From Pseudogymnoascus verrucosus (taxonomy: Eukaryota), in NCBI GenBank assembly GCA_001662655.1, contig KV460262.1: a DNA stretch of 64,000 nucleotides; one strand, given 5' to 3'. The position numbers were made by a program, and so were the translations under genes. How positions within the stretch are numbered: the first letter of the stretch is position 1; each line of letters starts with the position of its first letter. Under the pieces are notes generated by a model that was given only the letters and a program-made list of their open reading frames with translations, was not told the origin of the DNA and made no database searches. This document shows positions 1-55,946 of this stretch, piece after piece.

Positions 1-56
1 CTATTATCAAAAGCTTCATTTTTTTTTATATACGCTATTCCTATTTTTATATACGA

Positions 57-26921: not shown

Positions 26922-28007
26922 ATGTCTCTCAAACGAAAAGCCGCCGATGCCGCTCTGGCAGACGCCAAAAAGGTCAAGGCGAATGGCAGCATCACGTCTT
27001 TCTTTGGGCCTCCCAAGGTAGCCGCTGCCAAGACCATCTCGACGACTACGAAGGTTGTTGCGAAGTCGGCCGGTGGAGAGACTACAGAGACTGTGGTAGA
27101 GACTGTTGTTCAAGAAGAGGTCAAGTCCTCGAGGCCAAAGTTCGACAAGAAGAAGTGGGCTGAGAAGCTCACGGCTGAGCAGAAGGAGCTGTTGGGGCTG
27201 GAGATTGAGACGCTGGATGAGAGCTGGTTCGCTGTGCTGAAGGATGAGCTGCTCACCAAGGAGTTTCTTGCACTGAAGAGGTTCCTGGTGCAGGAGCATA
27301 TAGCCAAGAAGCAGATCTTCCCGCCCGCAGAGGACGTTTATTCTTGGTACGGCACTCTCCACTCACATTCCCTCTCCTCTCCTCTGTCAACTTCAAACCT
27401 ACCATACAAGTAATACAGCTAACCCTCCTCCCCCAGGTCCCGCCACACCCCCTTCCACACCGTCAAAGCCGTCATCATCGGCCAAGACCCCTACCACAAC
27501 CACAACCAAGCGCACGGGATGTGCTTCTCCGTCCGCCCCCCCACCCCCGCCCCTCCCTCCCTAAAAAACATGTACAAAGCCCTCAAAATCGACTACCCCG
27601 GTTTCCAACCCCCGCCCAACAACGGCGGTCTCCTAACCCCCTGGGCCGACCGCGGCGTCCTCCTCCTCAACACCTGCCTCACGGTGCGTGCGCACGACGC
27701 CAACAGCCACTCGGGAAAGGGGTGGGAGAGACTGACGCAAAAGGCGATTGATGCGGTAGCGGCGAGGAGGGGGAAGGGGGCGGTGTTTATTGCGTGGGGC
27801 GCGGCGGCGGGGAAGAGGGTCGCGAAGGTGGATAAGAAGAAGCATTGTGTTTTGGTGGGGGTGCATCCGAGTCCATTGAGTGCGCATAGGGGGTTTTTTG
27901 AGTGTGGGCATTTTAGGAAGACGAATGAGTGGTTGAGGGAGAATTATGGGAGGGAGGCGGAGATTGATTGGAGTTTGGATGTTGATCCCAAGGTTGCGGG
28001 TGTTTAG
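26922..28007 (+). CDS. UNG1: Uracil-DNA glycosylase (family 1); exons 26922-27346, 27437-28007
   Basis: GQDPYHN, PPSLKN, GVLLLN and HPSPLSA motifs, plus PIP-like SITSFF near the N-terminus. Confidence 0.96.
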
Positions 28008-35188: not shown

Positions 35189-35972
35189 TCACGCCTTAGT
35201 ATTCAACATAACCCTCCCCACCTCCTTCCCCTTCATTCCCAAAACACGCACCCCTTTCCCCTCTAACTCCTTCTTCTTCTCCCCCCACTTCTCCGGCTCA
35301 ACAGCTCTCGTCCCCTCCTCCACAATCACCACCTTAAACCCCTCTTTCACCGCATCCTCCGCTGTAGCAGCGACGCAGTAGTCCGCTGCTAGGCCGACTA
35401 CATATACATCCGTCACCCCTTTCTCCTTCAATAAAGCTGAGAGCCCGCTATCCCCGACGCGTGGGGAGGAGAGAGGGGGATAGAAGGCAGAGTACATTTC
35501 GACTGATGCCATTTGGCCTTTTTCCACGATCCTATCCACCTTCGACAGATCCAGATCTTTCACCAGTTCCGCGCCTGGACTACCCTGTACGCAATGATCT
35601 GGCCATAACCGACTTTCATATTTCTCAGACGGGTTCTGGGGGTTGGTAATCGTCGCGAAACTGGTAAAAGCCTCCTTCCCCGGGTGTGAAGATGCGAAAC
35701 TGATGTGGCCAGCAGGATGCCAATCCTTTGTAGCGATCTTGAGGACAAAGGGGTAGGCGAGGAGGGTGTTGAGGGTGGTGAGGATAGAGCGCCCTTGGGG
35801 AACTGCTAAGGCGCCGGACTGTGGGGGGTGGGGGGTTAGTGGGGTGGTGGATGGTGGGGAAGTGGGACACAGGGAAGAAGGGAAAGTGGGGAGGGGAAAG
35901 GCGTACGGGTGGACAGAAGTCTTCTTGGAAATCTACTATTATGAGTGCCGGTTCGAATGCTGGTTCCGCCAT
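35189..35972 (-). CDS. PNC1: Nicotinamidase/pyrazinamidase (isochorismatase family); exons 35972-35907, 35818-35189
   Basis: ALIIVDFQEDFCPP|SGALAV, TKDWHP.GHISF, LWPDHCVQGSPGA, YSAF and VVGLAADYCV. Confidence 0.93.
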
Positions 35973-36291
35973 TATCGTGTTGTTGTTATTGTTGTTGATA
36001 GACGGCGGGGTATTTGGCGGGGTAAAGGGTGGTAACGCGTGAGCCTGCTGACGGATGCGATGGATGTGTGGGTTGGCAGGGTGGTCTAGATGCTGGATTG
36101 GGTGGGATTAATAGGAGATTGTATTATTATATTTTTTGAAGGGTGGAGGAGGATGGGGTTTATAGTTTTAAATAGGTGGAATGAAATGGGTGGTGTGACA
36201 TAAACGTCACTCTCCGGAACCTATGCTTCCCATTCTCACCCCAGGTAGCAGATTTGGATGGTATATATGCTCCCCCCACAGAAGAATTGTT

Positions 36292-36352
36292 ACATACGAC
36301 CATAGACTCAAGAGAATTGGACATCCCGTCCGCTCTGCCATACACAAGCTTG
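36292..36352 (+). pseudogene. 5S rRNA 5' half (nt 1-61), interrupted after CAAGCTTG
   Basis: Matches the intact copy at 43856 except for one transition and stops abruptly at 36352. TATA lies about 30 bp upstream. Confidence 0.93.
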
Positions 36353-37010
36353 TAATCCACTTGCTTATTACTCTCAATCGTGCCAATAGGCATAACGTGA
36401 GATCTCAGCCCCGTGCTGCCTTAAGGGGTGAAGCGAGGGTAATCAGGGTTTGCCGAGGGGTGATCACGCTGACCAGGGTGACCACGGTGAGCGGGGTGAG
36501 GCGACGCAACGTTTTCGTGTCAATTTCGTGTCAGTCCCGCATCAATTTCGTAACAGTACTAGAGTGTGGGCGTTTTAGCGGAAGCAGCTTCGTAGGGCAG
36601 GAATTGAGGCACGAAGGAAGAGCGCCTCCGGAAGAAGAGTGTAAGAGCTCTTCTTCGGGCTGGCCTCCCAATTCCTCCGAAATTTGAGGAGCCAATTCCT
36701 GACCTAGAAGCCCCCGAAATTGAGGGCGAGTGCGAGAGCCAGTGCGAGAGCGAGGGTGGGGGCGAAGGTGGGAGTGAGGGTGGGAGTGAGAGTGGGAGAG
36801 GAAGTGATAATTTCGTAGAGTAGGAAAATTATGTACCTTTACATACAAATTACTATGGACAGGTACTTACGGTCGCAATTTTCAGTTGCTGCATATTGCC
36901 TGCCCGGGGCCCCGAGTTGACGCACATTGCTTGTTCCAACCTTTCGCTTCGCTCAAGGTTGGTTACGACGATTAGTTTATACTCTTCTATTAACTTAGCT
37001 TCTTATAGTT

Positions 37011-37040
37011 TGACTACTAGCAAATACCTACTATTGTATG
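37011..37040 (+). pseudogene. Degenerate 5S rRNA 3' fragment
   Basis: TGACTACTAGCAAATACCTACTATTGTATG aligns to 5S TGACCACCAGCGAATACCCACTGTTGTATG with only C>T/G>A changes, followed by a T-run. Confidence 0.8.
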
Positions 37041-37675
37041 GTTTTTGTTTGACGCTTTTATTATTTTTGGCTTTTGGATTATCAATCGTGGCGATGAGGC
37101 GCAATAAGGGCCTGTTTGAAGCATAGTAACGCCAAGGTCGCGAGTTCGACCCTCGTAGTGACCAATATTTTTAATATTTTGCTGGTTGTGCTGGCGAGAA
37201 GGGCGGATTCATTTTTTTTTGCCAGTGGTGGTGATGTAGAGGGACAAGCGACTACAGGGGGATGGTGAGTGGGTGGGCGAGCATAGGGGGAGGAGGATTC
37301 GCGTGATTGTTCCAACACCTCCACTCCTGTAGCTGGCCTAATTTAACAACCATCTTGACGTTTCATCCCACCTTCCCTACTTGCTGGATGGAGAATAGTC
37401 TAGATAAGGTGATTCGCACCTCACTGTCCAAAGAGCACCCGCATTTTGCCTAGCTAGGGTCAATCGTTCTGTTGTACATTCGTTCACTACACCTCTAAAC
37501 TTAGGACACGGTGCATAGCACGCATATCCTCTGTGGTATGATTCGTCAGCCTCTGGAGGAACTCTGTTGGTTTTTGTCTATCATAGTCTCTTTGGTGTGT
37601 CAGGCATCACCACCTGCCACCACCGGCGCTTAAATCAATCACTAGGTAATGGAGATAGATAATCACCCCGATGGA

Positions 37676-37677
<2 letters not shown>

Positions 37678-37712
<35 letters not shown>
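37678..37712. repeat. Compound microsatellite (CT)n(GT)n
   Basis: Seen directly. A (TTTTG)n run also occurs at ~37797-37820. Confidence 0.9.
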
Positions 37713-37714
<2 letters not shown>

Positions 37715-37908
37715 TGCAGAATTTGCCGCTCTGTGTATATCTCTCTAGCCTCTCGTGCTTCCAAACACTACTAATATTGCTAGACCCTGCTTTGCATTTT
37801 GTTTTGTTTTGTTTTGTTTGCCCTCGGTACAGAAATCGTCCTTAGTTAGCCTCGAGATTTGAGAAGATTAGCGATCATTTTGACTAGGCGTCGACCTATG
37901 CAGCCATC

Positions 37909-40900
37909 ATGGAGGATCCACGAGAATTCATTGAGGGGATTGCAAGAAGCAAAGGTTCATTCACCGAATCGTTTAGACAGCAAGCAGATGAGGAGGCAAG
38001 ACAAGGACGCAGAGGAATGCTGCAAGCCATCCAGGGCGCTGAAGAAATCCGGGAGGATCTTTCGAAGGCGCTAAACATGTACTAGATCAATTTCCTTGCC
38101 CGATTCGAACTTCTCATAGTGTAGTGCTAACGTGTTTGCTAGCATATCCGCCGATTTATACACGAGCAGAGCTCGATTCCTCATGGAAGTCATACAAAAT
38201 GCAGATGACAATCAGTATCTTGCGTCATCTACACCAACACTCTGTATCAATGTTACTCGTCGACTTGTCAAGATCGAGTGTAATGAAACAGGATTCACCG
38301 AGGCAAACGTCCAAGCTCTGTGCCGGACAGGACGGAGCTCCAAGCCTCCCGGCCAAGGCTACACAGGAGAGAAAGGTATCGGCTTCAAGTCGGTATTTAA
38401 GATTGCTAAAAGAGCACATGTACGCTCTCCGCCCTACTATTTCCAGCTAGATAGGGCTAGGATGCTCGGGATGATTACTCCTCAATGGGACGAAGAATAT
38501 TTTGCAGCCCATTCGCAGGATTACCAGACTACAATCATTCTGGATCGAATCTGCGATGCTTCGACGAATTTTGCTGCTGCTCTAGAACTCGATATAGAGG
38601 CAATCCACCCTATGGTTATATTATTTCTCCGCCGGTTAGAGAGGCTGCAAATCACCCTACACCCATCTGCCTCCTTGCAAAATGAAGCCAGAATGTCAAG
38701 ACGTTTTCGCCGCTACACCAATGATGCTTTATTCCCAGGAATCACGACTCTCGAGAACGAGGATACTGGGACAAAGGAGCATTTCTATAAGGTACAATAC
38801 ACGTCCGCTTTTAATGGAACAGAGGAACGTCGACCAAACTTGACTCAGACTGATATAGTGCTGGCTTTCCCTGTAGAGCTAGTCTCTAATACATGGACAC
38901 CTAGACCGAAGCAGTTACACACATATGCATATCTTCCTCTTGGAAAATTTGGCTTTCAAGTAAGACCCACGGCGTAGGGAACCAAAACGTGCTTGCTTAA
39001 TTTGATATCAGTTTATTGTACAAGCAGATTTTGTCACTACATCAAACCGCCAATCTGTAGACGAAGACAGTCCTTGGAATACTAATATTGCTAGAGCCAT
39101 CCCGCAAGCGTTTGTCGATGCAGTTGCTGCTTTTAACAGGGTATTCCCCGACTCGGCGCAGTCAGCACAGCTGTCAAAGACTTGGCTAGTGTTCCTTGGA
39201 GTTACTTCCGCTGAGCCAAGTGAGTACTGGCGGAACATACGCAGAGGTATTGTGAAACGTCTAAAGAGACGTGAGGTCATCCAAACTCGATCTGGGAGCT
39301 ATGCATCCCCGCCATCGTTAATGTTCTTGAGCTGGGCAAAGGACCGCGATGGAGAGCCCATATTTGGTTCGAACAACGGTTATGTCTCCTCGGCGTACCC
39401 GGCCTCTGTGCATGGAATCCTTGGCATTCTAGGAGTCGGCACCCCTGACTCGGAGTGGATTTCCACGGAGCTCCAAGATTTACAGCGTAGCGGCTCTCTT
39501 CATGACAGGAGTCGATCATCAGCATGGTACTCTGACCTTGCAAAAGTGATCCTCACACCAGGAAAATCCGCACGCCATCCTACATATAAATATGAGCTGC
39601 GCAAAATACCACTCATACCTCTTGTAGATGGTCTGTGGAGTGTTGCTCCCACAGTGTCTACTCCAATTTACTTCCCTCAGAGTCTAGGAGCAAGGATTCC
39701 GTCCGGATTGCCACTACTTTTGGTCGACGAGGCGGCATGCAAATGTAAACATCGGACAAAGCTGTTTGAGTTGCTGGGCGTGAAGTACTGCGATGCCAGC
39801 AATATTGTGAAGGAAATCGTTGGCTACCATACAAGATTTACAAGAGCCAACCATTCCGATATCGTGGGTCATGCCAAGTATCTTTATCATGCTAAAGATC
39901 AGTTAATAGGGAATGACCTGAAGAAAATATATTTTGCAATCGCTGAAAAAGGTTCGTTCCTCAAAGGATCCGACTTATATACAGATAGTCCGCCCTCAAC
40001 AGAACTTTCCGAGCTATTTTCTGGGTATGGGGATGCTCGGTTTCTTCATCCTGATTACTTCCAAGACCTTCATGCTATAGAGAAGAGGCAGTTCATAGAT
40101 TGGCTGAAATCCGAGGCGGACATTGCTACAGTGCCACGCCTAACAACGCAGTACGATGGGCTGCACGATGATTTCCGCTGGATTTTGGAGAACAGAAGTG
40201 ATCGCGTATTAGATATCATACGCCGACATTGGGATGTCTATAGTTCTAAATTCACAAGCCAGATACAACGACAGTTTGCGCACCGCACCTTCCTCTGCCA
40301 AACCGGAAACCTAGTTCCCTTGCGCCAGAGCTTTATACCCCTCCCCGGTTTAGTGCAAAAGAGTCATGAATTGTGCGGTTCCGATTCCTGCTCTTTCTTA
40401 GTCTTATCCGGTTGTCTGCCAAGAGACTGGAGATTTCTTTCAACGTTTGATGTAGGGACAGAAGATAACCTTGACTTTTACCTGTGGATTCTGGAGCAAC
40501 CCGGATTTAAGGTGAATCCTAGTGTTGAGAGAGCGAAGAGGCTCTATTCTGAGATACAGTCACGAGCAGGATCTAATGCAGAGAAAGTGAGCGTGAGGTG
40601 AGGATGTTAACCCCTCGCACTAACCAATGTCAATATGGCAGTTTGGATTCCCGACCACTGACTTATATAAATAGAAATTCATTCTGCAAAAATGTCATCG
40701 CCTTACCAGATAATACTTTTGTCTCTGCAGGGAACTGCGTTTACTACGCGCCTCGAGGCTTCCAAGCTAAGCCATCTCTATTGGCGATATATGGGAACGA
40801 CCTATCTAATCTGTTCCAAAACATCCTATACATAAAGTTTGCCTCTCATACTGAGGCTCTTGAATATCTTTATCTGATTAGGTCCAACGTATCTACAACG

Positions 40901-43719
40901 ATGCAAGCTGTATCGAGTGTGTACGAATACCTTCAAGTTTTTTGTCCAGCAATGTGAGCAATCGTTAGACTATTAGACTACTACATTACTAACATGCTGT
41001 AGAACAATCGATCCGAGGAATCGTATTATTGCTATACCATCTGAAACAGGATCGCTTGAGTGGAAGATGCCGTCTGAGTGCGTGTGGGATGACTCGGAAT
41101 TCTCTCAAAACGAGCTACAACTTCGAAGCAAAATTGCGATGGAACAGATTATTAAGCAACATGCTCCCGCTGCTGCATCATTCTTCACTGCGATTATCAA
41201 GCTCCCAAACGCGGGAATCGATGAGCTACTTAGTGATCTCAGATTACTGCAGCAAGATGGAAGTGACGATTCGGCAACTGTATTCCGGCTGTACGAGAGA
41301 ATCGAGGTGTATCGTCGCAGCTCGGTAGAAAAGATTAAGTGCGTTCCATAAGACTGACTCTGAAAGGTTTTCACTAACATAATTGCAGAGACGCTTTTCA
41401 AACTAAGCCCCTAGTGTTTCTTCGGGGGTATAATGGTAATCGTGGCCGCTGGCTAAAGCTCGAGGATTGTGTCTGGAGCCGGACGATTCTTCGCACTAAG
41501 TATGCCTTAATGAGCACACTTAACCAATATCGGAGTCTATTCCGAGATACTTTAGATGTGCCGAACGTGACACTGAAGATGTTGGTTCAGGGGTTCATCA
41601 GCACCAGTGATACACCTTGGGAATATAGCAAAGACTTGCTACTTGACATAAGTCGCAAAAGAGAGACAAATAATGAATTAAGGCTATTGCAAGGGGTGAA
41701 GTGCTGGCCCTGTCGTTTGCCAACTGGCGAACCAGCGTTCTGTGCAGTTGGAGATTTCTTCGTTAACGACCGGCAAAACCTCTTTGAAATTTTCAAAGAC
41801 TCTCAAACTTTCTTAGATCTCGATTTTGATGATTCTCGAAGGGTTACAGACCTACTTCATAAGCTGGGTTGCGTTTCGTTTCTTTCGGAGCAAGTCAAAG
41901 TGAATACAGAAGCTCATCTGCCGCTTCAGAGTGACCATGAGATGTCACAAAACTACCAAAGACGTGCTGATGCTCTAAATAGGTATGTTACCCTATTTCA
42001 ACCTAGTGGTGGAATCAGATTACTATCAACTGAAGATCGATTAACGGTAGCACAGGTACTTCGAGCACTACAAGTGCCGTTCTAAGTATTTCCTAAAGCC
42101 CTTGTTGGAGACCGTGAAGGTGTGGATAAGTCCGAACATCGAAACTCATTACCACCTAGCACGCGGATTGTCTCCGCAGATATTTACTGTAACGAGGGTC
42201 GAGGGAGGCTCTTCCGTACGAGTCAACGACACAAGCGATGACGCGAAGCCTGTTCTAGAGATCTATCTCTCTTCGGAACAAAAGAAGCGCGATTGTGCAT
42301 TAGTGACCGACTTTCCGAAACAGCTCCTAGAAGCGCTTAAGGTTCGACCTTTTAATGCTGCAACAGAGCTTCATCAATATCTAGAGGTCCCATTGGAGTC
42401 GCTGAATATGCTGCTGGTTAGGAAAGGCATCATAGGAGAAATCCTGTCTTCATCTGCTAGCTCAGACACTTCTGAGAGTGATGAGATGAGTGATGATGAG
42501 GATCAATTGCAGTGGCGTGGACTGGTTGCCCCTTTGGCAACCCCTGAGCGACGCTCCGGTGTGACGCCTTTTGCAACACCATTGACTGAGTTGTCGAGAC
42601 CCTCAGCAGTGGTAACTGGGCAATCTGTCCCATCTACACAATCGCCTCGGAATCCGGAGTTTATTTCCAGGATATTAGCAGTTGAAACTTCGTTCCGCAA
42701 TCCCTTCTCACGGAGTGGCTTCCTAATACCTCCCGAGAGACCAGAAGAAGCGCCACCTACGGAGCCAGTTACCACTGCAGGTATATATAGCACAAGCAAT
42801 CGTAGTCGAAATACAGATAGACTCCGGCAATTCGCTCAACATTCGCGCACCGGCCTAAATGCTTCAAGAAGTGGAACCAGCAGCGCCGTCAACACCCCAA
42901 TTGCGGCAGCATTCGATATGACAGAATTAGGATCAGCTCTCGAGGATTCTCGGGCTTCGGTAGTTCCCGCCACCCTGGTGTCCGTTTGGAGTGCTAGGCG
43001 CCCACAAGCAAGGCTTATCCCAGATCGCAATCAAGAAGATAGGGCTCGGGATTTTGAAATCGGTTTCCTAGGAGAGCACTATGTAAGTGATCCTGTAACC
43101 TCTCCGATCGGACGGGTGGATTGACTGACTTGGCATCTAGGTGTTCACGGTTCTACGTGACCAGCTCAGGCTGCCCAATTTCAGTGGCCAGGTCCATTGG
43201 ACGAGCTCATTGCGGTCTCGTGCCGGATTCAGCACCTGCCGCGACGGCCCCTCCGACTTTACCTACCCAGACACGGAGGGAGCTCTTACCCGTTACCTCC
43301 AACAAATGCTGTTTCCATACACGAAACCAACTTGGCTTGACACAGTCCTCAGCGACGGCAACAAGCCAACGTATCTCCTCGAAGTGAAAAGTACGCCATC
43401 TCGAAACCCCACGACTCGCTTCTTTATGAGTGGACATCAGCACGCTTTGGTATGTCTAATATAAACGCTCGCCTTACTTTACAAACGAGGATAACATGGA
43501 ATTAATTGCTTACACTCACGCTAGGCAAAGCGCTTACAGGTAACGTCCACTCGACCGACGCAGATATATGTAATAGTTCGCATCTCAGGTCTAGACGCTC
43601 TAGAAGATGGTGCGACTCATAAACCGCAGTGGAGGGTGTACCTCGACCCGTATAGTCTCGGCGAACAAGGCGTCTTGGGCTTCTACGCGCCTACTTATAC
43701 CGTGACCGCTGTTAGTTGA
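37909..43719 (+). CDS. Large sacsin/NO VEIN-like protein: N-terminal GHKL (HATPase) domain and C-terminal DUF3883-like PD-(D/E)XK nuclease fold; ~9 exons
   Basis: RFLMEVIQNADDN, NETGF, GEKGIGFKSVF and FAYLP-like YAYLP..FIVQADF..SNRQ. C-terminal GFLGEHYVF..SDFTYPD..YLLEVKST..FFMS..Q. Approximate exons: 37909-38078, 38143-38959, 39012-~40590, ~40675-40953, ~41002-41338, ~41389-41982, ~42056-43082, 43141-43449, 43525-43719. Confidence 0.85.
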
Positions 43720-43855
43720 GTGCGGAGAAAGGGAGGCCGATGTAATGTACGCAGCATCAGTTAAATACAAGGAGATTCCGAGAAGGCCCTACTAGCATTT
43801 TATAGTTGCAAGTAGTCTACTACAGGATATGTTCTACATATGAGGTGTATTTACC

Positions 43856-43974
43856 ACATACGACCATAGACTCAAGAGAATTGGGCATCCCGTCCGCTCT
43901 GCCATACACAAGCTTGAGATCGGTGGATTAGTAGTTGGGTGGGTGACCACCAGCGAATACCCACTGTTGTATGT
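43856..43974 (+). rRNA. Intact 5S rRNA gene (119 nt)
   Basis: ACATACGACCATAG...CTGTTGTATGT with complementary termini (helix I), ascomycete-type CATCCCGTCCGCTCTGCC and box C-region GGATTAGTAGTTGGGTGGGTGACC, followed by T-runs (Pol III terminator). Confidence 0.97.
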
Positions 43975-44453
43975 TTCTTTTGCCTCATTATTTATTTTTT
44001 TGTTGCTTGTGTGGATAGTTGTCAATGGGTCAGCTCAGGTTAGGGGGATGCTCGGGTCGCCTACGTTCTATATCTAAGGCCCGAGGCTCATAACGGATAT
44101 CCATCGGTATCCCCAACTAGTCACTTACCCGAATAAGTCCAACACTTTGTCTACCGATTCCTCCTGCACGACAAGACCACTTCTCCAGATCATGCTTGGC
44201 ATTGAGCTTAACAGGTCTCAGGAGGTGCGGCATCTACCCCGCATCTACCCCACAACTTCAGCCCGCCAGCAAGGGTTGGGGAATGGAAATGGTTATCCCA
44301 CTTCGAAGTGGGATAACCATTTCCTGTAGAGCCTAATACTCGAGTATATAAAGAGCGACATCCCACTATGATGATTCTAGCCTCGTTATCAGAATTTAGA
44401 TCGCTTCTTTTGTTACAGGTTACTGGGTGAAGCTTGGTGGACTTTTTGCAGAT

Positions 44454-46153
44454 ATGTCGGCCTTAAATGCTGTGGAAGATAAAGCCGGGGAGGAAATTTT
44501 CAAAAATGACGATGGCGAGAAGAAGGATGGGTATAGGGTTGCGGAGGAGGATGTCTCTCTTGAGCAGAGACAGATGGAGGCGAGAATCATGTGAGTCCTT
44601 ACTTTCTTCACTCTCAGATATCAAGAGCACCGCTAAAGTTCACGCAGGCGCAAGGTTGACTGGCGTCTAATCCCCATCCTCGGCATCCTCTACTCAGTAT
44701 CAGGTCTCGACCGCGTCAATGTACTTTCCCTCTCTCTCTCTCTCCCTAACCTCCCAACCCCTCCCACTCAGCCCACATCACTAACAACCCACAGATCTCC
44801 AACGCCCGCGTGGCCGGCATGGACAAAGACCTCCATTTTAATATCGGCAACCGCTACAGCATCGCGCTCCTGGTCTTCTTCATCACCTACCTGCTCTTCG
44901 AGATGCCGTCCACGCTCATCATGCGCTACATCGGCCCGCGGGTGCAGCTGTCTGCTCTCGCTATGAGCTTCGGCGCCGTCATGCTTGGGATGGGGTTTGC
45001 GAATGATTGGCGTGTTATTGTGGTTTGTCGGATGCTGATTGGAATGTTTGAGGCAGGGTTTTTGCCTTGTTGCATGTACCTCCTCTCGTGCTGGTATATG
45101 CGCTATGAGGTGCAAAAACGCATGGCGATGTGGTATGTCGTCAACTTGTTCGTGTCGGCCTTTGGCAATATCCTTGCCTATGGAATTGTGAAACTAGATG
45201 GCGCGCACGGAATTGCGGGCTGGAGATGGATCTTCATCATTGAGGGAGCTCTAACAATCGGCGTTGCGATCATCGGATACTTCATCGTCCTCAACTTCCC
45301 CGACAGCATCCTCGCCTCAGGCAAGAATGGATACTTCACCCAAGCCGAGCTGGAGGTTGTCATGGATCGCGTAGAGCGTGACCGAGGCGACAGTTTACCC
45401 GATAAGTTGACGAAGGAGAAGTTCTTCAGGCATATCTCCTCGTGGCAGCTTTGGGTCTATGGCTTCATGTTTCTTTGCTGCTCGGCTCCGATTTATGCTT
45501 TTGCGTATTTTATTCAGACGATTTTGAAGACGATGGGGTATTCGACTGCAGTCGTGTTACTGTTGTGCGCGCCGCCCTATCTGTTCAGTGCGATTTGGAC
45601 TGTTGCTGTTGCGTGGGCAGCGGACAAGACGAAGCTTCGGATGCCGTACATGGTCCTGAACGCGGTCATCACGCTCGTGGGGCTGCTGTTGACAGCATAT
45701 TGCAAGGTGAGTCCCCATTCCGATTTGCTTTGCATCGACTAACAGAACAGAACAACGGCGTTCGCTACTTTGGCATCTTCCTTGGAGTATCAGGCTGCAA
45801 CGGAAATCTCCCCACAATCATCGCGTTTCAGAGCAATAACGTTCGATCTGACAGCCGCCGCTCAGTTGGTTCCGGTATTCAATTCGCATTCGCCGCCATC
45901 GGGGGGATCTACGCTTCATGCACGTTCATACAGAAGGAAGGTATGAATTCACTATCTGATATGATGTAAAACTTGGATCTGACCTGATATAGCTCCTTCA
46001 TACCCTACCGGAATATGGTGCGCCGTAGCCACCCAGTTTCTCCTCGCGATTTTGGTTGGAGTGATGACTCTGCACTTCAAACGTGTGAACAAGAAGGCTG
46101 ATGAAGAGGGATTTGTCCTCCAGGAGGATGTCCATTTTAGACACACATATTGA
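44454..46153 (+). CDS. MFS transporter, allantoate/nicotinate permease (Dal5/Tna1-like ACS family); exons 44454-44590, 44648-44720, 44795-45706, 45751-45940, 45992-46153
   Basis: RKVDWRLIP..LDRVNISNARVAGM, EMPS, RMLIGMFEAGFLP, LSCWY, GIAGWRWIFIIEG, APPY and C-terminal FRHTY. Confidence 0.92.
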
Positions 46154-46972
46154 GCCGGTCCTCAAGCTTAGTGCGATGTGTCTCTATTATACCATCCTAT
46201 AATAACTCTCAAAATGTTTCCACTTCAAGGCTGCCAATAGGCGTAGAATGGAGAATTGTAGCCAATATTGAAAGGAGTAGGTGGATACAGCCAGTCGGTT
46301 AGGTGATGGATTTGCGGTCTCGGTTGAAATATCCAAGGTTGGTACGGTTGGTGCGCGGCTTCCCACCGTCTCAGTAAGAGTAACTTGTCTGTGTACCCTT
46401 TGCAGCAAGAAAACTAATATCTCCGTTAGCAGCACTATGCACAGTGTTAAGTCTCGCGTACTTTTGGAATACCTCCCCCACGTCCATGTGCTTGACTTTA
46501 GTGGCACTAGAGAGAGAACGTTGTTTAACTTAACTTAATGCATTCTGTTCTTTGGATGTTTTCTGCTTAAAGTAGCCTCGCGACTGTACTAGAACAGCTT
46601 GTCCTTCTTTAGAGAGTGTTTTCTGTCCTATAGTACTAAGAAAGTCCTTAAAAGTGAATGAAGAATGTTATAGATGGTAGACTGCAAAATGTAGACATTA
46701 GGGGAGCGTATCTTTTATACAATTTTCTAGCTCACCCTCGCTCACCTTCGCTCACCTTCGCTCACCTAGGTACTAGATTATCCGTAGCCATCTAAAGGCA
46801 TAGTGCATTATGTTCATTACGTCTTAATACGAGATCCACTTCGTGCGTGTTAACGTGGCTGCCATTAGGTAGCTAAGGGGGACAACTAGATTATCGTAAG
46901 GCATCAAAAACTTAAGGGCGGTAACGCTTACCCACTAGTCTAAATGGCACCGTCCTGAGTATTAATCCACTT

Positions 46973-47038
46973 CAAGCTTGAGATCGGTAGATTAGTAGTT
47001 GGGTGGGTAACCACTAGCGAATACCCACTGTTGTATGT
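46973..47038 (+). pseudogene. 5S rRNA 3' half starting at CAAGCTTG
   Basis: Matches nt 54-119 of the intact copy with three transitions and a T-run terminator. The sequence upstream is not 5S. Confidence 0.93.
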
Positions 47039-47159
47039 TTTTGCCATTTTTTTTTAGCCTTTTCGGAGTATCATAGCTAAATACTAATTAACAGTTTTGA
47101 GTTTGAATATCCATTAGTGTGCATGCTTGCACTTATAGTCCAATAACCGAATCACTATC

Positions 47160-47220
47160 ACATACAACCATAGACTCACGAGAATTGGGCATCCCGTCCG
47201 CTCTGCCATACACAAGCTTG
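47160..47220 (+). pseudogene. Second 5S rRNA 5' half (nt 1-61), interrupted after CAAGCTTG
   Basis: Two mismatches to the intact copy and the same breakpoint as 36352. Confidence 0.93.
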
Positions 47221-47830
47221 TAATTCAGTGAATTGATGCTCTCAATCATGCTGATAGGCATAGCGTGGAATATGTGCCCCTTGCCGCCTTAAGGGGTGAA
47301 GCGAGGGTGAGCAGGGTGAGCTGAGGGGAGAGCAAGGTGAGCGGGGTGAGCAGGGTGAGCGAGGAGAGGCGACGTAACAGTTTCACGTCAAGTTCGCGTT
47401 AATTTCCGTAAATAAAGTCTCGCGCCCTCACTAAATTGAGGGGCCGCGTATCCACGGATCCACCTAATATACGTGGACAACTGTTCTTCACGCCCACTCA
47501 AAATTGGAGCGCTTTGAGAAACTCGATCCAGTCAAAGATAGCTCAGGTCATTCTCATTTATTATTGGCAATAAACGCCGTACAGCTGTGATTCTGGCCCC
47601 AAGAATCATGCAGACTAAGGCACATATTCTGACGTATTGGGTGTAGTTTCGTACAGTAGAGTAGCTGGGAGATGGACTCACACGGTGACGTAGCAAAGTG
47701 ACGTAGAAAATTGACATATCATATTTACTAAGCAAAGGCCACAGTATGATTATTAGAGAGATTTCTTCCATCTCGACCTTTGTTAACCTAATGTCGCCAA
47801 TTCTATTTTCTTCATCACCCTTCTAAATTC

Positions 47831-49784
47831 ATGCTTATAAGTTTAGCAACGAAACTAAACTTAATTACAAGGCCTAAGATTATCCCGTTTACATCAAAGG
47901 CCCTTTCTACATGCACCCTCTCATATATCTTGAAAATGCCGCCGAAAAAATCACCTGCTATTAACGGTAAACGCAAAGGCCCACCTTCAGCAGAATCAGC
48001 TCATAGTAACGAATCTCACAAAAAGCCAAAAGTCAACGATGACTCCATAAATCCTCTCTCAGCATCCCATCCCAAAGCACAAGAAGCGGAAAGAAATGGC
48101 ATCACACTTCGAGCATTTTATGGGCCCGAGATGTCCAATACGCATGCTCTCGCGTACAAGAATGGCCAAATTGCTAGACCAATCGAAGTTCTAAATTCTG
48201 CACTTTTCGAAACCAAGCCGAAGCGGGAGCAGATCGAAGTTAGCAACGCAGTGGTCCATTGGTTCAGGTGTGATTTGCGGATGCGAGATAACAGGTCTCT
48301 CTATGCTGCGAGTAAGAAGGCGAGGGAGAACGGCGTTCCCTTAATCACCATGTACATCGTTAGTCAGCAGGATTTCGAGGCACATCTGGTGTCGCCTGCT
48401 AGAGTGGATTTCATATTGCGGACGCTAAGGGTCTTAAGGGAAGATCTAGCAAAGCTTGATATTCCACTTTATGTAGAGACTCTAGAGAAGAGAAAGAAGA
48501 TTCCCGGGAGGATATTGGAGCTTGTAAAGGAATGGGGATCAGATCATTTATTTACTAATGCGGAGTATGAAGTCGATGAATTGAGAAGAGATGCAAGCCT
48601 AGTCAGAGAATGTCTAGAGATCGGGGTTGCAATGGACGTTCTGTCGGATACCTGTGTTGTGAAGCCTGGGGACCTAGTGAGTAAGTCCGGAACACAGTAT
48701 TCTGTGTACACTCCATGGTATCGTGCTTGGGTTGCATATATCCATGAGAATCCTCTGTTGCTCGATCTTTCTGAAGCACCTAACAAGAATCTCAATGGCG
48801 CAAGGCAAAAATACCTCAAGCTATTCGAGAGCACCATACCCAACGAAGTCGAGCATAAAAAGCTAAGTGACGAAGAAACAGAGAGGTTTTGCTCTATGTG
48901 GCCAGCAGGAGAGCATGACGCACACAGGCGCCTTATAAAATTTATAGACGAACGAATTGGAGGGTACAAAGCACACAGGAACAATCTTTCAGAACAATCA
49001 ACTTCGTCGCTTAGCGTCCACTTGGCTAGCGGCACCCTGAGTGCGAGAACAGCAGTTAGAATGGCGCGAGATCACAACCGTATCAAGAGGCTAGATGGTG
49101 GGGTTGAAGGTATTCTGACCTGGATCAGCGAGATTGCATGGCGAGACTTCTACAAGCATGTCTTAGCCCACTGGCCATATATCTGGTATGTGATTCTTAC
49201 GTTTTTAAGGCATGTGTCTAACGGTTCTTAGTATGAATAAGCCATTTAAACTGGAGTACACTAACATAGAATGGGAATACAATCAAGATCAATTTGAAGC
49301 CTGGTCCAAAGGTCGGACAGGATACCCAGTAGTTGACGCAGCAATGCGCCAACTGAACAGCTGTGGTTGGATGCACAATCGCGGCCGGATGATCGCGGCA
49401 TCCTTCCTAGCAAAGCATCTCCTTCTCGACTGGCGCATAGGTGAGAGGTATTTCATGGAGCACTTAATCGATGGAGATTTTGCCTCGAACAACGGGGGCT
49501 GGGGATTTAGTGCCTCGACAGGAGTTGATCCTCAGCCATATTTTAGAATCTTCAACCCCCTCTTGCAGAGCGAAAAATTCGACCCCGAAGGAGAATATAT
49601 CAAGAGATGGGTTCCCGAGCTAAGGGGTATCGCGGGCAAGGCAATTCATGATCCGTATGATAGGGGAAAGGGAGCTGAGGCGAAAAAGTGCGGGTACCCG
49701 GAGCGGATAGTGGATCACAAGGAGAGTAGGGACCGGTGTTTAGCTAGGTATAAAGAGGGCTTGGGACGAAAGAGCTACTCCTAA
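47831..49784 (+). CDS. PHR1: Class I CPD photolyase; exons 47831 (or 47936)-49185, 49232-49784
   Basis: VHWFRCDLRMRDN, NAEYEVDE, SVYTPW, TSSLSVHLASGTLSAR, EIAWRDFY, GRTGYPVVDAAMRQL..GWMHNRGRM, DGDFASNNGGW and YFRIFNP. 46-nt intron. Confidence 0.95.
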
Positions 49785-50142: not shown

Positions 50143-50370
50143 TCTACTATTATGAGAGCTGGTTTGAAGGCGGGGTCGTTACTCATTGTGGTGGTGGTGG
50201 TGGTGATGTTGTTGTTGATAGCTGGCGGGGTTTTTGGTGGGGTAAAGGGTGGTAACGCGCGGTGAGACTGCTGATGGATGCGATGGATGTGTGGGGTTTA
50301 TAGTTTTCAATAGGTGTAATTAAATGGGTGGTGTGATATGAACGTTACTCTGCGGAATTTATCTTGCTCC
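50143..50370 (-). pseudogene. Diverged duplicate of the PNC1 first codons and promoter
   Basis: ATG at 50186 gives MSNDPAFKPALIIV versus MAEPAFEPALIIV. 50187-50370 aligns to 35973-36230 (GGGGTAAAGGGTGGTAACGCG, GATGCGATGGATGTGTGGG, AAATGGGTGGTGTGA) with an internal deletion. Confidence 0.85.
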
Positions 50371-50530: not shown

Positions 50531-51117
50531 TTTAATAGATAGGAGATTATGTACATAGCTTAAATTGTATGTAAATCCCTAATTACTACAATTAGTCTCT
50601 TAGTGCACTAGAACAGAAGCTTCGTAGTAAATGCAGTATGTAAAGTAAATAGATTAATTGAATTTCTACTCTATGTTATACGCCTACGTATTCTACTTAT
50701 ACGGGAAGCCGCGAAACCCTGACATGATAAGGGCTATTCAGCTTTAGCTGCGAAGGATTTCGTGGCTTGCATAAGGCCTACACCCACGGAGCTTCCGAAC
50801 CAACCAGGGAGTCGGACTTTACGCCGGAGAAATCCTCCGGTTTCAGGGCCAATAGCCCAGCGATCCTGGCGCCTACGTCTTTCCCCCTTCAACATACTTA
50901 TGCCACCATAGTTAATAAAGTCGCTCTTGGCCCCTGCGTGCGGCTGAGGTTGCTGCAAGGAGTCTATTATAGGAAATGAGCTCCCAATGCCTGCTAGACA
51001 ATGATTATGAAGCAGCCTACTTACCCTTTTAAAGGGCAGTGGCACCGGGTGCCTACGACTGTAAATTTTTGTCTTGACTTAGCTCGAGAACTCTAGCACT
51101 CAATCTCCGTGATTAGC

Positions 51118-53325
51118 ATGGAGCTGTCTAGAAGCGAAAAAGATGCCACGGTTTACGACACAAAACCTCATCTTTTATCAGTCGAAGAGAACGATGACCA
51201 GTGGATTCACCGCCCTCCGCTTCATGTTCCGTTAGATGGGGGAGCGCTACCTTCGTTAGATTCGAGTGCAACCAGCTATCGCTTTGAGCGATATATATTT
51301 CGGGCTGTTCTCAACGCTCTTGGCCCCATCATCGTTACGCTGTTCTACTTTCTTATTCTAAGGTATTATCTGTGGGAGCCCGCTGAGAATGGTATCATCC
51401 CCTCTCGCCCTGTGAATTCTAGGGGCGTTTTCTTTGCCTGGCTCATTCTCAGTATTTTCGTCCTCGACTGGGCAAAGTCTGGCCTCGCCGGGTTTGAGGC
51501 GGCGGCTCTTATGAAACCAGAATATGCACCGTTAGACGGTCGCAAGTTCATGTGGCATATCGACCGCGGCTGGGGCTCTTTAAGCAGTTGGTGGCAGGTT
51601 TTGCTCCTCACGTTTCGATATGTCTACAAGAAGATGCGTGCTGGCAAGGAACCGGTGGAGTGGGAAGGGCCCGGGCTACTCTGGTTCTACCTGGCTTTTT
51701 GCAGCTTTTTGTTCTACGCGGTTGTGCCACTCTCTGGGCTATCCATGGAGCCTACGGAGGCCCTGCAACTGGCCAAACGTGCCATTGCGATCTCGGGCAC
51801 CAACCAGACTACGTTCCAAATGCAGCCGTCGAATGCTGTCGCTGATTTGGCCAGTTATAGCTGGCGACAAGGTCGTCCGACAACCCCGGAAGGAGCTACT
51901 ATTCTTTACGCTCCCGATGGTACCCCAGATGTCAGCAGTACATTTTACGAAGATATGATCCAGTCGGACTATCAGAGTCGCCTGCTGGATAACTCTGGCA
52001 GTCTCAACAGTACGATCACTTTCTTCTCCGGTCCCGAAGTTAGTGAACGAGCGCATGGCAGGGCATGGGGAATGCTGACAAGTATTTCCTGTATGCCTGT
52101 CCATCCCTATAGGGACCTCGAGCTTCTCAGTGTCACGGCTATTAATAAATGGAGTAGTCCTGTTTGGACTACGACATCCAAGGACTATGTTAATGGAACT
52201 TCTGGGCCTTACGCCGCGAGCGGATTCGAACCCGTGCATTTTGCGGAGGGGACAGGTCTAGGCTTGAAGTACCAATATCTGATGGCGAGCAATCTGGGCA
52301 TATTTGCCGGCCTCGCCAGGTATGACAACGAGACCCGCCTGCCCGTTCTAGGTGCGATAGAATTGGTTATGTGGCAGGCATTCGACACGATAGTTGGCTA
52401 TATACCCGACGAGACATTCAAAAACATGTCATCTCACCCCCTAGTTGAGTCTTCCTTCTCAAGCCGAGATAACAAGACATACCTAGGCTACGGTGTTCGC
52501 TGCTCTGTGAACTCAACAGTCGGCGCAGCCACTATCTCAGCAGTGACAAATACCTTTACAGACTTCAAGACCCAAGTAGCTAGTCTGAAGGCTACTCGTG
52601 TTGGAGCGCAAATCACCACAACCTCAGGAGTAATGGGACTACAATCCCTGGTCTTCTCCGCATTCACATCAGTCCTCCTCGGCTACCAAGGCTTCCCCAA
52701 ATGCTCCTCCTTCTCCGTCTTCTGCACCGGCCCCATCGGCGCCAACCTAGCCACCAACGGAATCCCCTCTTTCGCACCAATCCAAAAATCCCCCCCCGGC
52801 TCCGAAAGCGAATACACCGGCGGGCTGATGCAGTACCCCTCCATCTCGCCCGAGCGCATGAACCTAGCAATGTACAAGCTCTTCGGCGAGCTCTCCATGG
52901 GCGTCATGTCCACCGGCCCTGGCAACTGGACGTCCACCCCCAACGCGACGTCGGATCTAGGCCTTGTCGGCCTCGAGCCCGCACACGACATCGAGCAGGG
53001 CCGTGTGCCGTATAGGGTGGTGCTCGTGCTCCTCCTTCTGTGGGCTGTCGTCACTGTTCTTCCGCAGCTGCTGCTGCCGGGGTTACTGGTTGAGCGCCGC
53101 TGGGGCGAAAAACTGGATGGCTTTACGATGTTTAGGTTTGGTGCTGAGTGGCGAGATAGCGTGCATAGTTTGCGGTCGAGGGAGCTGGGTGGACCGGGCG
53201 CGGCGGCTTTGGGCGAGATTCCGGGGATGATTGGGGATATGAGGGCTGGGGAGATGGAGACGGGGTTTGTGGGGTTGAGTAGGGAGAAGGCGAAGTTGAG
53301 GAGGGTGTATAGCTATGCTAGGTAG
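51118..53325 (+). CDS. Hypothetical membrane glycoprotein (~735 aa; 3 N-terminal TM helices, large luminal region, 1 C-terminal TM helix)
   Basis: Long intact ORF with hydrophobic segments, N-glycosylation sequons and C-terminal LDGFTMFRFGA. Confidence 0.8.
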   Translation: MELSRSEKDATVYDTKPHLLSVEENDDQWIHRPPLHVPLDGGALPSLDSSATSYRFERYIFRAVLNALGPIIVTLFYFLILRYYLWEPAENGIIPSRPVNSRGVFFAWLILSIFVLDWAKSGLAGFEAAALMKPEYAPLDGRKFMWHIDRGWGSLSSWWQVLLLTFRYVYKKMRAGKEPVEWEGPGLLWFYLAFCSFLFYAVVPLSGLSMEPTEALQLAKRAIAISGTNQTTFQMQPSNAVADLASYSWRQGRPTTPEGATILYAPDGTPDVSSTFYEDMIQSDYQSRLLDNSGSLNSTITFFSGPEVSERAHGRAWGMLTSISCMPVHPYRDLELLSVTAINKWSSPVWTTTSKDYVNGTSGPYAASGFEPVHFAEGTGLGLKYQYLMASNLGIFAGLARYDNETRLPVLGAIELVMWQAFDTIVGYIPDETFKNMSSHPLVESSFSSRDNKTYLGYGVRCSVNSTVGAATISAVTNTFTDFKTQVASLKATRVGAQITTTSGVMGLQSLVFSAFTSVLLGYQGFPKCSSFSVFCTGPIGANLATNGIPSFAPIQKSPPGSESEYTGGLMQYPSISPERMNLAMYKLFGELSMGVMSTGPGNWTSTPNATSDLGLVGLEPAHDIEQGRVPYRVVLVLLLLWAVVTVLPQLLLPGLLVERRWGEKLDGFTMFRFGAEWRDSVHSLRSRELGGPGAAALGEIPGMIGDMRAGEMETGFVGLSREKAKLRRVYSYAR

Positions 53326-53480: not shown

Positions 53481-53530
53481 TAGTAGGTAGGTAGGTAGGT
53501 GACTACTAGCAAATACCTACTGTTGTATGT
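53481..53530 (+). pseudogene. Degenerate 5S rRNA 3' fragment
   Basis: GTAGGTAGGTGACTACTAGCAAATACCTACTGTTGTATGT plus a T-run. Aligns to 5S nt ~75-119 mostly by transitions. Confidence 0.82.
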
Positions 53531-53762
53531 TTTTATCTTATGGCGAAATGCAAATAAATAACTATGTTCTACGGTTTATTTATATTCTAGCCTATTTCGA
53601 ACGAAGATACCGATATAGCTATGATATAGAGCTATTTCCATCCCTCCAAAAGCAGAACCTCAGCCATGCATTCCAGCTATAATCCTCATAACCTAGCGCC
53701 CCAGCAACACCAGCAACACCAGCAATTAAAACTCCCACCCATCATATATACCCCCCAAACCC

Positions 53763-54779
53763 TCAGTTCAACAACACTTCCCCAACCACACCCCCAGCAA
53801 CCACCTCCACCACCTCCACCACCTCCACCACCTCCCCAGCTTTCTCCCTCCTCCTCTTTTCAGCCCAAACCCCCAACTCCCTCCAAATCTTCTCCTTCTC
53901 CGCCTGCGTCGGGTTCGCCGCAAGCCCGCTCGTAGTCGTCGCCACAAAGACCCTCGCACCCTTCCACACCTCCCCCTCCTCCCCCTCCTCCTTCAAACCA
54001 TCAGGCTTCCCAATCGCCTCACTATCATCCTGCCATCCATACCTAAACTCCTCTTTCTTAATCGCCCTCCCATGCCTCACCCTCCAAATGCTCTCCCAAA
54101 TACTTTTCCCGACAATACACACCGCTTCCGGTTTGAACATCCGCATCTTCTCTTCAAGCACCGCTACACTGTCGTCCATCTCCTGCTTACTCAACTCCGC
54201 ACCATTGCGTGTTGGGCGAGCAACGATATTCGTATTCCCCAAACTGTAAAGCGCAGGTAAACTCCTATCCTCAACCGGCTTCATCAACCGCGTAGTGAGT
54301 CCTGAGGAGTAAAGCAGTTTCCAGAACCGGTTGGAGGGGTGTGAGTACGCGTGCCCATCGGTAGCGGTGCGGAGGCCGGGGTTGAGACCGACGAAGGCGC
54401 ATATGAGATTTGGCTCGAGGATGTCGACTAGTTCGTTGAGGTGGGCGTATTTGGAAGGGTGGGCATAGCCGGCGGGGGTGCGGGAACGGGATTTTTTGCT
54501 TGGAGAGGAGGAGAGGGAGGGAGTGTTTGTTCCTCGCTTTCGGGGAGGGGAGGGGGAAGCGGAGGGCTCGATTTTGACAACTGAGGTCTGAGAGAGGGAA
54601 TTGGATGCCTCGACTTTGGGAGTGAGACTCCGAGGACTGCGGCGGAGGGTTTGAGTCGCAGGAGCCTCGAAAGCGAAGGAGGAGAGGTTGAGACGGCCTT
54701 TGAAGCTTGGTGAGGAGACGGGGATTGCCTCGAGAGTGGTATCCTCTGTTTTGAGAGTGAGGATTTTGGTTGCTGCCAT
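53763..54779 (-). CDS. G:T/U mismatch-specific DNA glycosylase (TDG/MUG family, Thp1-like)
   Basis: FVGLNPG..GHAYSHPSNRFW, GNTNIVARPT, VCIVGKSIWE and TTSGLAA. Likely start is MAATKIL at 54779. Confidence 0.92.
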   Translation of the reverse strand: MAATKILTLKTEDTTLEAIPVSSPSFKGRLNLSSFAFEAPATQTLRRSPRSLTPKVEASNSLSQTSVVKIEPSASPSPPRKRGTNTPSLSSSPSKKSRSRTPAGYAHPSKYAHLNELVDILEPNLICAFVGLNPGLRTATDGHAYSHPSNRFWKLLYSSGLTTRLMKPVEDRSLPALYSLGNTNIVARPTRNGAELSKQEMDDSVAVLEEKMRMFKPEAVCIVGKSIWESIWRVRHGRAIKKEEFRYGWQDDSEAIGKPDGLKEEGEEGEVWKGARVFVATTTSGLAANPTQAEKEKIWRELGVWAEKRRREKAGEVVEVVEVVEVVAGGVVGEVLLN

Positions 54780-55946
54780 GGTGATGGGTGTGGGGGGGTT
54801 GAGAATCCCGAGGCTGAAGATTTGAGGATTGAAGTTTAAGACTCGAGTCAGTGGTGTTACTATCGTCGCTGGCGCTGAAAATGATACCAGGGACTGGTTA
54901 AATGGCTTGAGACATGATAATGGGCTGTTAAACTTTAGATATATATGAACACAAGCCGCCTGACACCGTTGATGAGGTTGAAAAGGACCACAGGCAGACA
55001 ATGCCTCAATATTACAAGCCACAGTGGAACTCGACTACTCATATGCAACTGTATTAGTCCGAATCATACCATGGTAGCCTTGCAGCCTTGTCAGGAGATG
55101 GTCTCTCACCGCCTAGAGATTTGAATCGGCAGAATAAAGGAGAAGCCCATCGCAAGCCAAGAGTCCACTAGAGCCACCCACTAGAACCGTGCACAACCCA
55201 CTAAAAATCCAGGATGCAAGTGCCTCGACTGCCCTAAAATATCCCCCCAATACTGCCCGGAACTGCCCCTGTAACCCCCTAACATCCCCTGTAGAGATTT
55301 TCGTGTTATTTGCTGCGGTCGGTACACGGCAGATGCGTCTAATACGAGCATAATTGCCCCTCCAACTACGTACCCCCTACATAAAAATGGTCCAACCACT
55401 CCATAAAATAAACAATAAACACAAACCACAACCACAAACTTGGCTGCTGATTTTTATTTTTAGCACACAGTAATAAGATACTATAGAGATCCTCAATGTG
55501 GGCGGCTTCATCGAATCAGATCCTCCCGTGTTGTCCCGCACTGGCACTTTCCTTGCCTCTATCCCACCTATCCCACATATCCCACTCCCGATTCTCCAAT
55601 AAAGTGGTTCACACTCCGCCCTTGTCCGGCATGGATCTTCGTTCGTGTAAGAGCGTCACCCCGCCAGCCAAGCCCCACCGCCTCAACTGGAACACGAAGA
55701 GAGGGAACGGGTGAGGGGGGGCAAGGGGGGCGGTGGACTCAAATGAATTGAACAGGAGGCCATGACGACTCTCTTTCCAAGCTTTATAAACACCCATTGA
55801 CCACCACCAACTTTCTTTATCCCATTCATTCCCTCTCCATATCCCATTGTACACCTCAAGCTTCAAAGCTTCAAAGCTACCAACCAACCTCTCCCACCCT
55901 CCCACCTTCCACAACCCCCCCAACAACAAAACCACCACCACCCACC

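Follow-up and report, generated by a model that had tools for sequence, protein, structure and literature searches.

Captain-side end of a putative Enterprise-family Starship remnant in a 5S rRNA gene of Pseudogymnoascus verrucosus and its inverted likeness to the 5S internal promoter

The targeting of 5S rDNA by Starships has already been published and a short direct repeat was described at the insertions, the source of the specificity being left open in the accessible part of that report (PMC11162782). The closest described element is Osiris navis, an Enterprise-family Starship of Aspergillus fumigatus, which occupies the same 5S position as the element end analyzed here and is listed with direct repeats ranging from aagcc to aagccacacg (PMC12153272 Tables S3, S4). 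Its terminal inverted repeats (TIR) of 13–17 bp are homologous to the arm that we term alpha, its captain belongs to fam06, and the Osiris captains are found about 300 bp past the 5′ half of the 5S gene, in sense orientation to it (PMC12153272). The Enterprise captain is likewise placed in fam06 (PMC11162782 Table S4), and so are six Aspergillus captains with aagcc repeats (tables of PMC11162782 and PMC12153272). For another Starship, Hephaestus, a captain-dependent, footprint-free excision was described, together with a circular intermediate that integrates in a captain-dependent manner and an extra one-sided target determinant, TTAC(N7)A (PMC10104507; bioRxiv 2026.09.21.753150).

The DNA considered here, further called the window, is a stretch of 64,000 nucleotides from Pseudogymnoascus verrucosus (contig KV460262.1, assembly GCA_001662655.1) that is fungal in character, with intron-containing genes and one intact 5S gene. 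Judged from its sequence, the site described below is the recombinase-side end of a decayed Enterprise-family Starship sitting in a 5S rRNA gene; both the kind of element and the target, i.e., a Starship end at 5S, are already known. The end itself (46944..46975, minus strand, alpha subfamily) is an inverted look-alike of 5S nt 63–94, made up of a 19-bp terminal inverted arm (46957–46975, minus strand) and an extension to the GGTG-CCA motif. It is followed by the putative crossover core GCTTG (5S nt 57–61), which with the next A forms a 6-bp spacer between the element arm and the 5S arm (46976..46981, plus strand). The 3′ half of the interrupted 5S gene (nt 57–120; 46976..47039, plus strand) carries three transition changes in comparison with the intact copy, and its nt 68–90, which span the intermediate element and run into box C, are found at 46987..47009 (plus strand); this is the stretch that the element end mirrors.

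The mobilizer supposed in the preliminary description, a tyrosine recombinase, was indeed found next to the end. The first ~82 codons of a DUF3435 gene are present at 46386..46631 (minus strand, inward and antisense to 5S), starting 345 bp inward of the element end (at 46631), and this captain remnant has a changed start codon, one stop and a truncation. Its protein is 56% identical to residues 1–66 of P0003 (E 1e-18), a Pseudogymnoascus DUF3435 protein that matches PF11917 with E 6e-41, and its DNA is 87% identical to a copy on contig C52, which runs on into PF11917; DUF3435/PF11917 matches lie ~1 kb inside two other alpha ends (contigs C25 and C52). The captain is the first gene and points inward from one end, as is characteristic of Starships, and terminal inverted repeats, an optional feature of these elements, are present with a length of ~19 bp. 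A metagenome locus, L181, combines the same alpha arm as the window end with a captain gene that has open exons. In these exons the motifs R, K, H-x-x-R and Y were recognized by eye, and we take them to be the catalytic residues of a tyrosine recombinase. The window copy stops short of this region. When it is compared with the open-frame L181 copy, 52 of the 94 substitutions are C>T or G>A, an excess typical of RIP. Stops are present in all captains of the family found in this genome; the element copy in the window is read as dead, its captain being broken.

The family assignment is indirect. P0003 is not itself listed in Table S4 of PMC11162782; of six homologues sought there, five belong to fam06 (37–48% identity to P0003) and one is absent, which places the captain in the Enterprise family (fam06) through the listing of its homologues. 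The insertion lies at the AAGC of 5S where Osiris inserts too, which in either 5S type is 14 nt ahead of TTAGTAG, and since the homologues are fam06 and the insertion point is Osiris-like, the junction is assigned to an Enterprise-family Starship end. Counted by hand, 14 of 21 letters of the listed Osiris right end agree with the window end (PMC12153272). A direct repeat agcttg of A. fumigatus was considered as a further case and rejected, as it comes from a single Logos row of the Prometheus family, for which the accessible table does not give 5S as the target.

When the genome was searched by pattern, the 3′ half of 5S was matched 78 times and the 5′ half 115 times, and 100 of the 5′-half matches were listed. 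The junction set taken from the fetched loci contains 60 left and 38 right junctions, with 15 of the 115 5′-half matches left out and with one left junction dropped (C30:72040), which breaks at another base and has unrelated sequence. Copies of the family share descent, so that the junction and mirror counts are not independent. The direct repeat common to both ends and to the empty target is GCTTG at 33 of the 38 right and AAGCTTG at 51 of the 60 left junctions, and it occurs once in the intact 5S; GCTTG (nt 57–61) is the shared core, the longer AAGCTTG being shared in the alpha subfamily only. At least 60 5S genes are split at nt 57–61, against at least 41 near-full-length copies listed (40 of 173 candidates were scored), and nearly all recovered ends sit at nt 57–61 or at another end. 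In a second 5S isotype (CCTTG; L080, L126) the insertions keep the host base at nt 57 at both junction types. At L013, L018, and L026 a left-end sequence without the core is found 25–50 bp past the T-rich end of an intact 5S, which may be a second junction type or the repair of a split gene. Several times a right junction is followed, within 190–240 bp, by a 5S 5′ half and a left end (window 46980–47220; C3:577059–577257; C63:161773–161962; L177, L179), which suggests that close 5S pairs were hit twice.

The ends of the element form ~19-bp inverted arms around a 7-bp spacer (GCTTG plus 2 bp). The right arm abuts GCTTG, and the left arm starts 2 bp past the core: a score of 15/19 against some right end is attained by 38 of the 60 left ends at offset 2 and by 17 at offset 1, with none at offsets 0 and 3–6. 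Joined ends therefore give the order arm, 7-bp spacer, arm, and L177, from another fungus, shows the same geometry. Left and right arms vary together from subfamily to subfamily, with cognate scores of 16/19 for B and alpha, 16/19 for C and beta and 17/19 for A and gamma, as compared with 8–14/19 for non-cognate combinations. For 15 nearest-neighbour pairs, mis-pairs included, the mean is 11.6 against 9.4 ± 0.7 after permutation (p 0.0016). Eight end-core-end junctions were found in the genome, four of them cognate and four between other subfamilies. Two further ideas about the ends were rejected: 46940–47015 folds as ssDNA no better than shuffled sequence (z −0.10), which speaks against a hairpin or cruciform, and left ends diverge from 5S at positions 19–25, which speaks against the restoration of a working 5S gene by the left end.

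The right end resembles not only its partner arm. In the consensus of 5S genes box A occupies nt 51–65, the intermediate element nt 68–73 and box C nt 81–98 (PMC3369914), and yeast TFIIIA protects bp 66–95 (PMC10245719). The right end is an inverted look-alike of nt 68–90, a stretch that takes in the intermediate element and ten bases at the start of box C. In the window the reverse complement of 46948–46970 matches this stretch at 17 of 23 positions, and at 15 of 23 in its own adjacent, mutated 5S half; the mirror axis lies in the middle of GCT-TGA (46978/46979). Two unrelated places among ~128,000 window 23-mers also reach 17/23 or more against the 5S stretch, and the match is therefore rare in fixed register, but less rare than a binomial value of 1e-6 would imply; none of 2516 interior 23-mers reaches 17/23 anywhere on 5S. 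Over the 38 right ends the mean is 13.0/23 in register against 3.8–8.3 at shifts of 1–3 bp, and on the 5′ side of 5S it stays at 3.0–6.6/23 at every shift. The in-register excess holds in all five subfamily exemplars (12–15/23), in two of which the in-register window is the second best on 5S (12 vs. 13 of 23). Against nt 73–90 left ends score 7.2/18 and right ends 10.8/18. The 5S gene supplies only one arm, from nt 63, which is 1 bp nearer to the core than the left arm of the element, so the spacer is 6 bp at the 5S target and 7 bp between joined ends. With one target arm and unequal spacers (6 vs. 7 bp) the arrangement is not a symmetric site of loxP type. The best-kept sub-motifs are T-x-A-R-T-A-S-T (nt 73–80) and GGTG (nt 87–90), about one helical turn apart; an enrichment of 5S matches among conserved positions was not significant (Fisher p 0.23).

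One metagenome scan, with a search pattern that fixed only TATT on the element side, gave ten loci from other fungi, several of them from the same samples. At positions 17–28, which the pattern left free on the element side, the three loci whose 5S is of the Aspergillus type match it at 10, 11, and 11 of 12; for the host 5S of the others the match is 8/12 in six and 6/12 in L181. At positions 3–12 it is 3–5/10 in nine loci and 9/10 in L181. The proximal match, GTGGA, is confined to alpha, and in other fungi it does not go along with the host 5S: a tracking of the host 5S by the proximal arm positions, suggested by Osiris and alpha, is contradicted by L173–L180 and L182.

The junction had been noticed in a preliminary description, which proposed an att-like site with octamer arms inverted around a palindromic core. 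As an observation this is confirmed in part, and as an interpretation it is supported in part, since the att idea holds in a corrected, longer form. The letters at the right junction are as described (TAATCCAC at 46963–46970, T, TCAAGCTTGA at 46972–46981, GATCG, and GTAGATTA at 46987–46994). The element octamer was said to be the reverse complement of the 5S octamer, which is true at 8/8 positions for the intact 5S at 43923, and at 7/8 positions for the local copy, which has an A, because the local 3′ half carries transition changes. Similarly, TAATCCACTT does stand at the left junction (36353) and the variant TAATTCAG at 47221. The end at 36353, however, is of type A (cognate to gamma, 17/19) and the end at 46975 is alpha (11–12/19 between them), so the shared TAATCCACTT is a coincidence between two end subfamilies. 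The palindrome fails as the centre of the site, its axis (46976/46977) lying 2 bp off that of the arms (46978/46979); nine of its ten letters equal 5S nt 54–62, and TCAAGCTTG is found at only 8 of the 38 right junctions, as a subfamily-specific feature. Conservation of the octamer at other ends was the check named in that description, and in the junction set only 8 of the 38 right ends have TAATCCAC in place, or 12 if one mismatch is allowed, and 4 of the 60 left ends open with it, which decides against the octamer. What stands is a pair of inverted arms around a short crossover core, the arms being ~19 bp long, and an end that mirrors 5S in fixed register in all subfamilies; the conserved part of the mirror lies further out than the octamer, at 5S nt 73–90. 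The placement in box A is right for the core (box A, nt 51–65) and wrong for GTGGATTA, which is the intermediate element (nt 68–73) plus two bases.

Around the junction the window contains further traces of insertion. A split 5S gene at 36292..36352 (5′ half, nt 1–61, plus strand, by sequence match to 5S) is followed by a left element end of type A (36353..36560, plus strand) with a 2-bp spacer remainder and the arm at 36355–36373; this end and the right end at 46975 (alpha) are non-cognate (11–12/19), and no assembled contig from related runs bridges the interval 36353–46975. Another split 5S gene (5′ half, 47160..47220, plus strand), placed 120 bp after the 3′ half that ends at 47039, leads into the left end of a neighbouring insertion (47221..47400, plus strand) of type B, the type cognate to alpha ends. 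The empty form of the target is the intact 5S gene at 43856..43975 (plus strand; Rfam RF00001, 74.2 bits), and degenerate fragments of the 5S 3′ half were recognized by sequence match at 37011..37040 and 53487..53531 (both plus strand). Shortly after the intact 5S, 44005–44035 shows a weak likeness to a shortened left end (GCTTG, TGGATAGT, TCAAT), which could be the lost partner of the 46975 end. Two genes of approximate limits, one with introns and a sacsin domain (37904..43720, plus strand; Pfam SACS, E 2e-8) and one for an MFS transporter (44455..46153, plus strand; Pfam MFS_1, E 1e-28), are possible cargo. Four subterminal GGTGAGC repeats with a 10-bp period (46730..46766, minus strand) are inverted with respect to similar repeats at left ends (36458–36501, 47305–47360), and such arrays may be sites of the arm type or sites for accessory factors. 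In run X7 the region ~37.2–43.7 kb is almost uncovered and 44.4–46.4 kb wholly so, the flanks being covered, and runs X4, X19, and X7 lack ~51–53 kb; because no contig joins across, these gaps are not counted as empty sites in other strains, and the listed joints mostly reflect other repeat copies.

Other observations in the window concern a perfect 40-bp palindrome upstream of the MFS gene (44285–44324) and two related non-coding copies (35932–36219 and 50143–50357; 78–89%), one of which is directly upstream of the split 5S at 36292. A 742-codon ORF without Pfam match (51097–53325), covered in one of four related runs, lies beside a degenerate 5S 3′ fragment. Two ORFs of the uracil-DNA glycosylase superfamily (27423–28007 and 53763–55034), with no tblastx match between the two regions, are present along with a photolyase gene (47792–49784). 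The stretch 37090–37165 looks tRNA-like by eye, and is called neither by Rfam nor by ARAGORN, whose search of the window found no tRNA.

Many paired ends in the genome are 3–14 kb apart, with no captain match in the stretches fetched and with differing genes inside, among them NLR-like genes, MFS and sugar transporters, a GMC oxidoreductase, a sulfatase and a dehydrogenase (42 of 74 listed ORFs were scanned). Captain-less units of 3–6 kb (L119, L132, L131, L124, L122, L115, L047/L078, L044/L069) each hold their own one or two genes, i.e., HeLo-ankyrin NLR-like, AAA NLR-like, MFS, GMC oxidoreductase, alkyl sulfatase or dehydrogenase, and may be termed cassette-like remnants. At two left ends out of 60 and four right ends out of 38, the sequence inward of ~55 bp is that of the opposite end, so that the captain comes to lie on the 5′-half side, as in Osiris. 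Elements of the gamma/A type with the interior inverted relative to the terminal ~55 bp were seen at L060/L079 (C2:379298–388311), L080, L116, L117, and L129. Inside a gamma-end unit an ORF (L116:357–1196) has six near-identical tandem C2H2 fingers and is not TFIIIA. A multi-finger cargo protein on contig C25 was also rejected as TFIIIA-like, its fingers being near-identical in tandem and TFIIIA standing far down its match list.

How would such an element find a 5S gene? The reading we favour, with somewhat better than even confidence, is that an Enterprise-family Starship remnant has its captain-side attachment junction here, and that the captain likely reads 5S as a third copy of its arm. 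The captain would excise the element as a circle and bind both circle arms as well as the one stretch of 5S that resembles an arm, and the circle would integrate by strand exchange inside GCTTG. The 5S 3′ stretch (nt 63–90) would thus be read as a third copy of the captain's own arm, of which the proximal sub-motif (nt 73–80) would suit the recombinase core and the distal GGTG the C-terminal C2H2-like fingers. In the last captain exon three Cys/His motifs are conserved in a 21-sequence captain alignment. The model of this putative finger domain has pLDDT 80, a single-sequence model being unusable (pLDDT 41), and its top fold matches are C2H2 proteins, but weak ones (Foldseek E 0.11 or higher; Z 4.0). 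A Pfam search of the domain gave no match. The putative fingers are a candidate reader of distal GGTG. Because recognition would be one-sided and right junctions keep the 5S arm, the reading would account for termini of fixed orientation and for re-insertion at old right junctions. The 1-bp difference in register between the 5S arm and the left arm of the element counts against it. Cre-type sites do not tolerate a 1-bp spacer mismatch; the 6- and 7-bp spacers suggest a tolerance like that of Tn916. Also unfavourable to this reading are the proximal positions at which the host 5S is not followed, the poorer mirroring by left ends, the non-significant enrichment at conserved positions, the two exemplars with a slightly better window elsewhere on 5S, and the weak fold matches and absent Pfam match of the finger domain. 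A wider proposal, which we put forward only tentatively and expect to fail in some part, is that Enterprise-family Starships find 5S by reading the Pol III internal promoter. The ends would mimic the intermediate element and box C in inverted form and would be bound by the captain C2H2 fingers, convergent with TFIIIA, or by accessory host TFIIIA; the right junction would keep its half of the promoter and stay a target, hence the stacking of captain-less one- or two-gene units at 5S like integron cassettes, with orthogonal arm subfamilies and an interior invertible between fixed termini.

Other explanations must be weighed against arm-reading by the captain. The ends could be a relic of their origin, descended from 5S 3′ sequence that was once captured and retained on the element solely as sites for the captain, with the target chosen through core homology, open chromatin or the Pol III machinery and the 5S stretch not read at all. 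We regard this as unlikely, in spite of several points in its favour: the decay of the match differs between subfamilies, at positions 3–12 the host 5S is not tracked, the 1-bp register difference is easily explained as history, and both junctions carry host-type letters at nt 57–61, the CCTTG isotype (L080, L126) included. By simple arithmetic a 5-bp core is too short to give 5S specificity in 30 Mb, with nearly all the recovered ends confined as described above; moreover, distant hosts share the register, and there is agreement with 5S at the best-kept positions (GGTG, TA, T).

A host factor might be mimicked instead, TFIIIA binding both the 5S control region and its look-alike in the element, and tethering or bending the DNA for the captain. 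IHF plays such a role for phage integrases. The mirrored nt 68–90 lie inside the yeast footprint (bp 66–95), with the core (57–61) outside it, in the bent region (PMC10245719), and GGTGGGTG of box C is intact in L173, L174, and L180, alpha keeping the whole intermediate element. Still, beta ends are numerous though they have lost most of the box C guanines, the mirrored motifs double as the inverted repeat of the element itself and are explicable without a host factor, and TFIIIA on nt 66–95 would presumably compete with a captain subunit placed there; this explanation is given slightly less credit than the relic of origin. Least probable by far is that the site is built literally as it was first proposed, from TAATCCAC octamer arms and a 10-bp palindromic crossover core, or that the resemblance is accidental. 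The letters are present, 8 of 38 ends show both features, and the two unrelated window 23-mers match the 5S stretch equally well. Across the family the literal design is contradicted by a palindrome that is off-axis and missing in 30 of 38 ends and by an octamer missing in 30 of 38, and chance is opposed by the in-register excess in all five exemplars (12–15/23) and in other fungi.

A likeness of the Osiris TIR to 5S is not noted in the accessible text and tables of PMC12153272. In a literature search no description of a resemblance between Starship ends and the 5S control region was found, with the proviso that supplements or subscription papers may hold one, and no paper came up for Starship together with TFIIIA; the promoter mirror and the spacer rule appear undescribed so far. 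The mirror offers a testable explanation of how these elements locate 5S genes, for which the junction series points to key bases (5S nt 73–80 and 87–90), to a rule for the spacer (6 bp at the target as against 7 bp in the circle) and to a domain that may act as the reader. For work in fungi, a recombinase whose safe-harbour target is defined and present in many copies would be of practical use. The genome itself has more split 5S genes (at least 60) than near-intact ones listed (at least 41), and dead elements have left small gene cassettes in it.

Attachment sites of the Cre/loxP, lambda, and Tn916 types have inverted arms, an asymmetric spacer of 6–8 bp and a circle with joined ends. In comparison with these, the site described here has one target arm and a spacer 1 bp shorter than that of the circle, and its arm likeness of ~28 bp is twice a Cre half-site. 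With Hephaestus it shares a DUF3435 tyrosine recombinase and a direct repeat derived from homology between end and target; Hephaestus differs in its family, in its low-specificity target and in that no long target look-alike is described in the accessible parts of the reports (PMC10104507; bioRxiv 2026.09.21.753150). Enterprise of Podospora anserina has a captain of the same family and a zinc-finger domain in KIRC, and its scattered solo ends (bufo, schoutedenella) and re-insertion at earlier copies are as here, whereas its target, RGGTAG, is partly palindromic and non-5S, and no TIRs were found according to the accessible text (bioRxiv 2020.03.25.007153). Osiris remains the closest described system. 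Unlike in Osiris, the alpha and beta captains are at the 3′-half end, antisense to 5S; the shared core is here reduced to GCTTG, there is more than one arm subfamily side by side (alpha, beta and gamma among the right ends), and captain-less units of 3–14 kb make up the majority.
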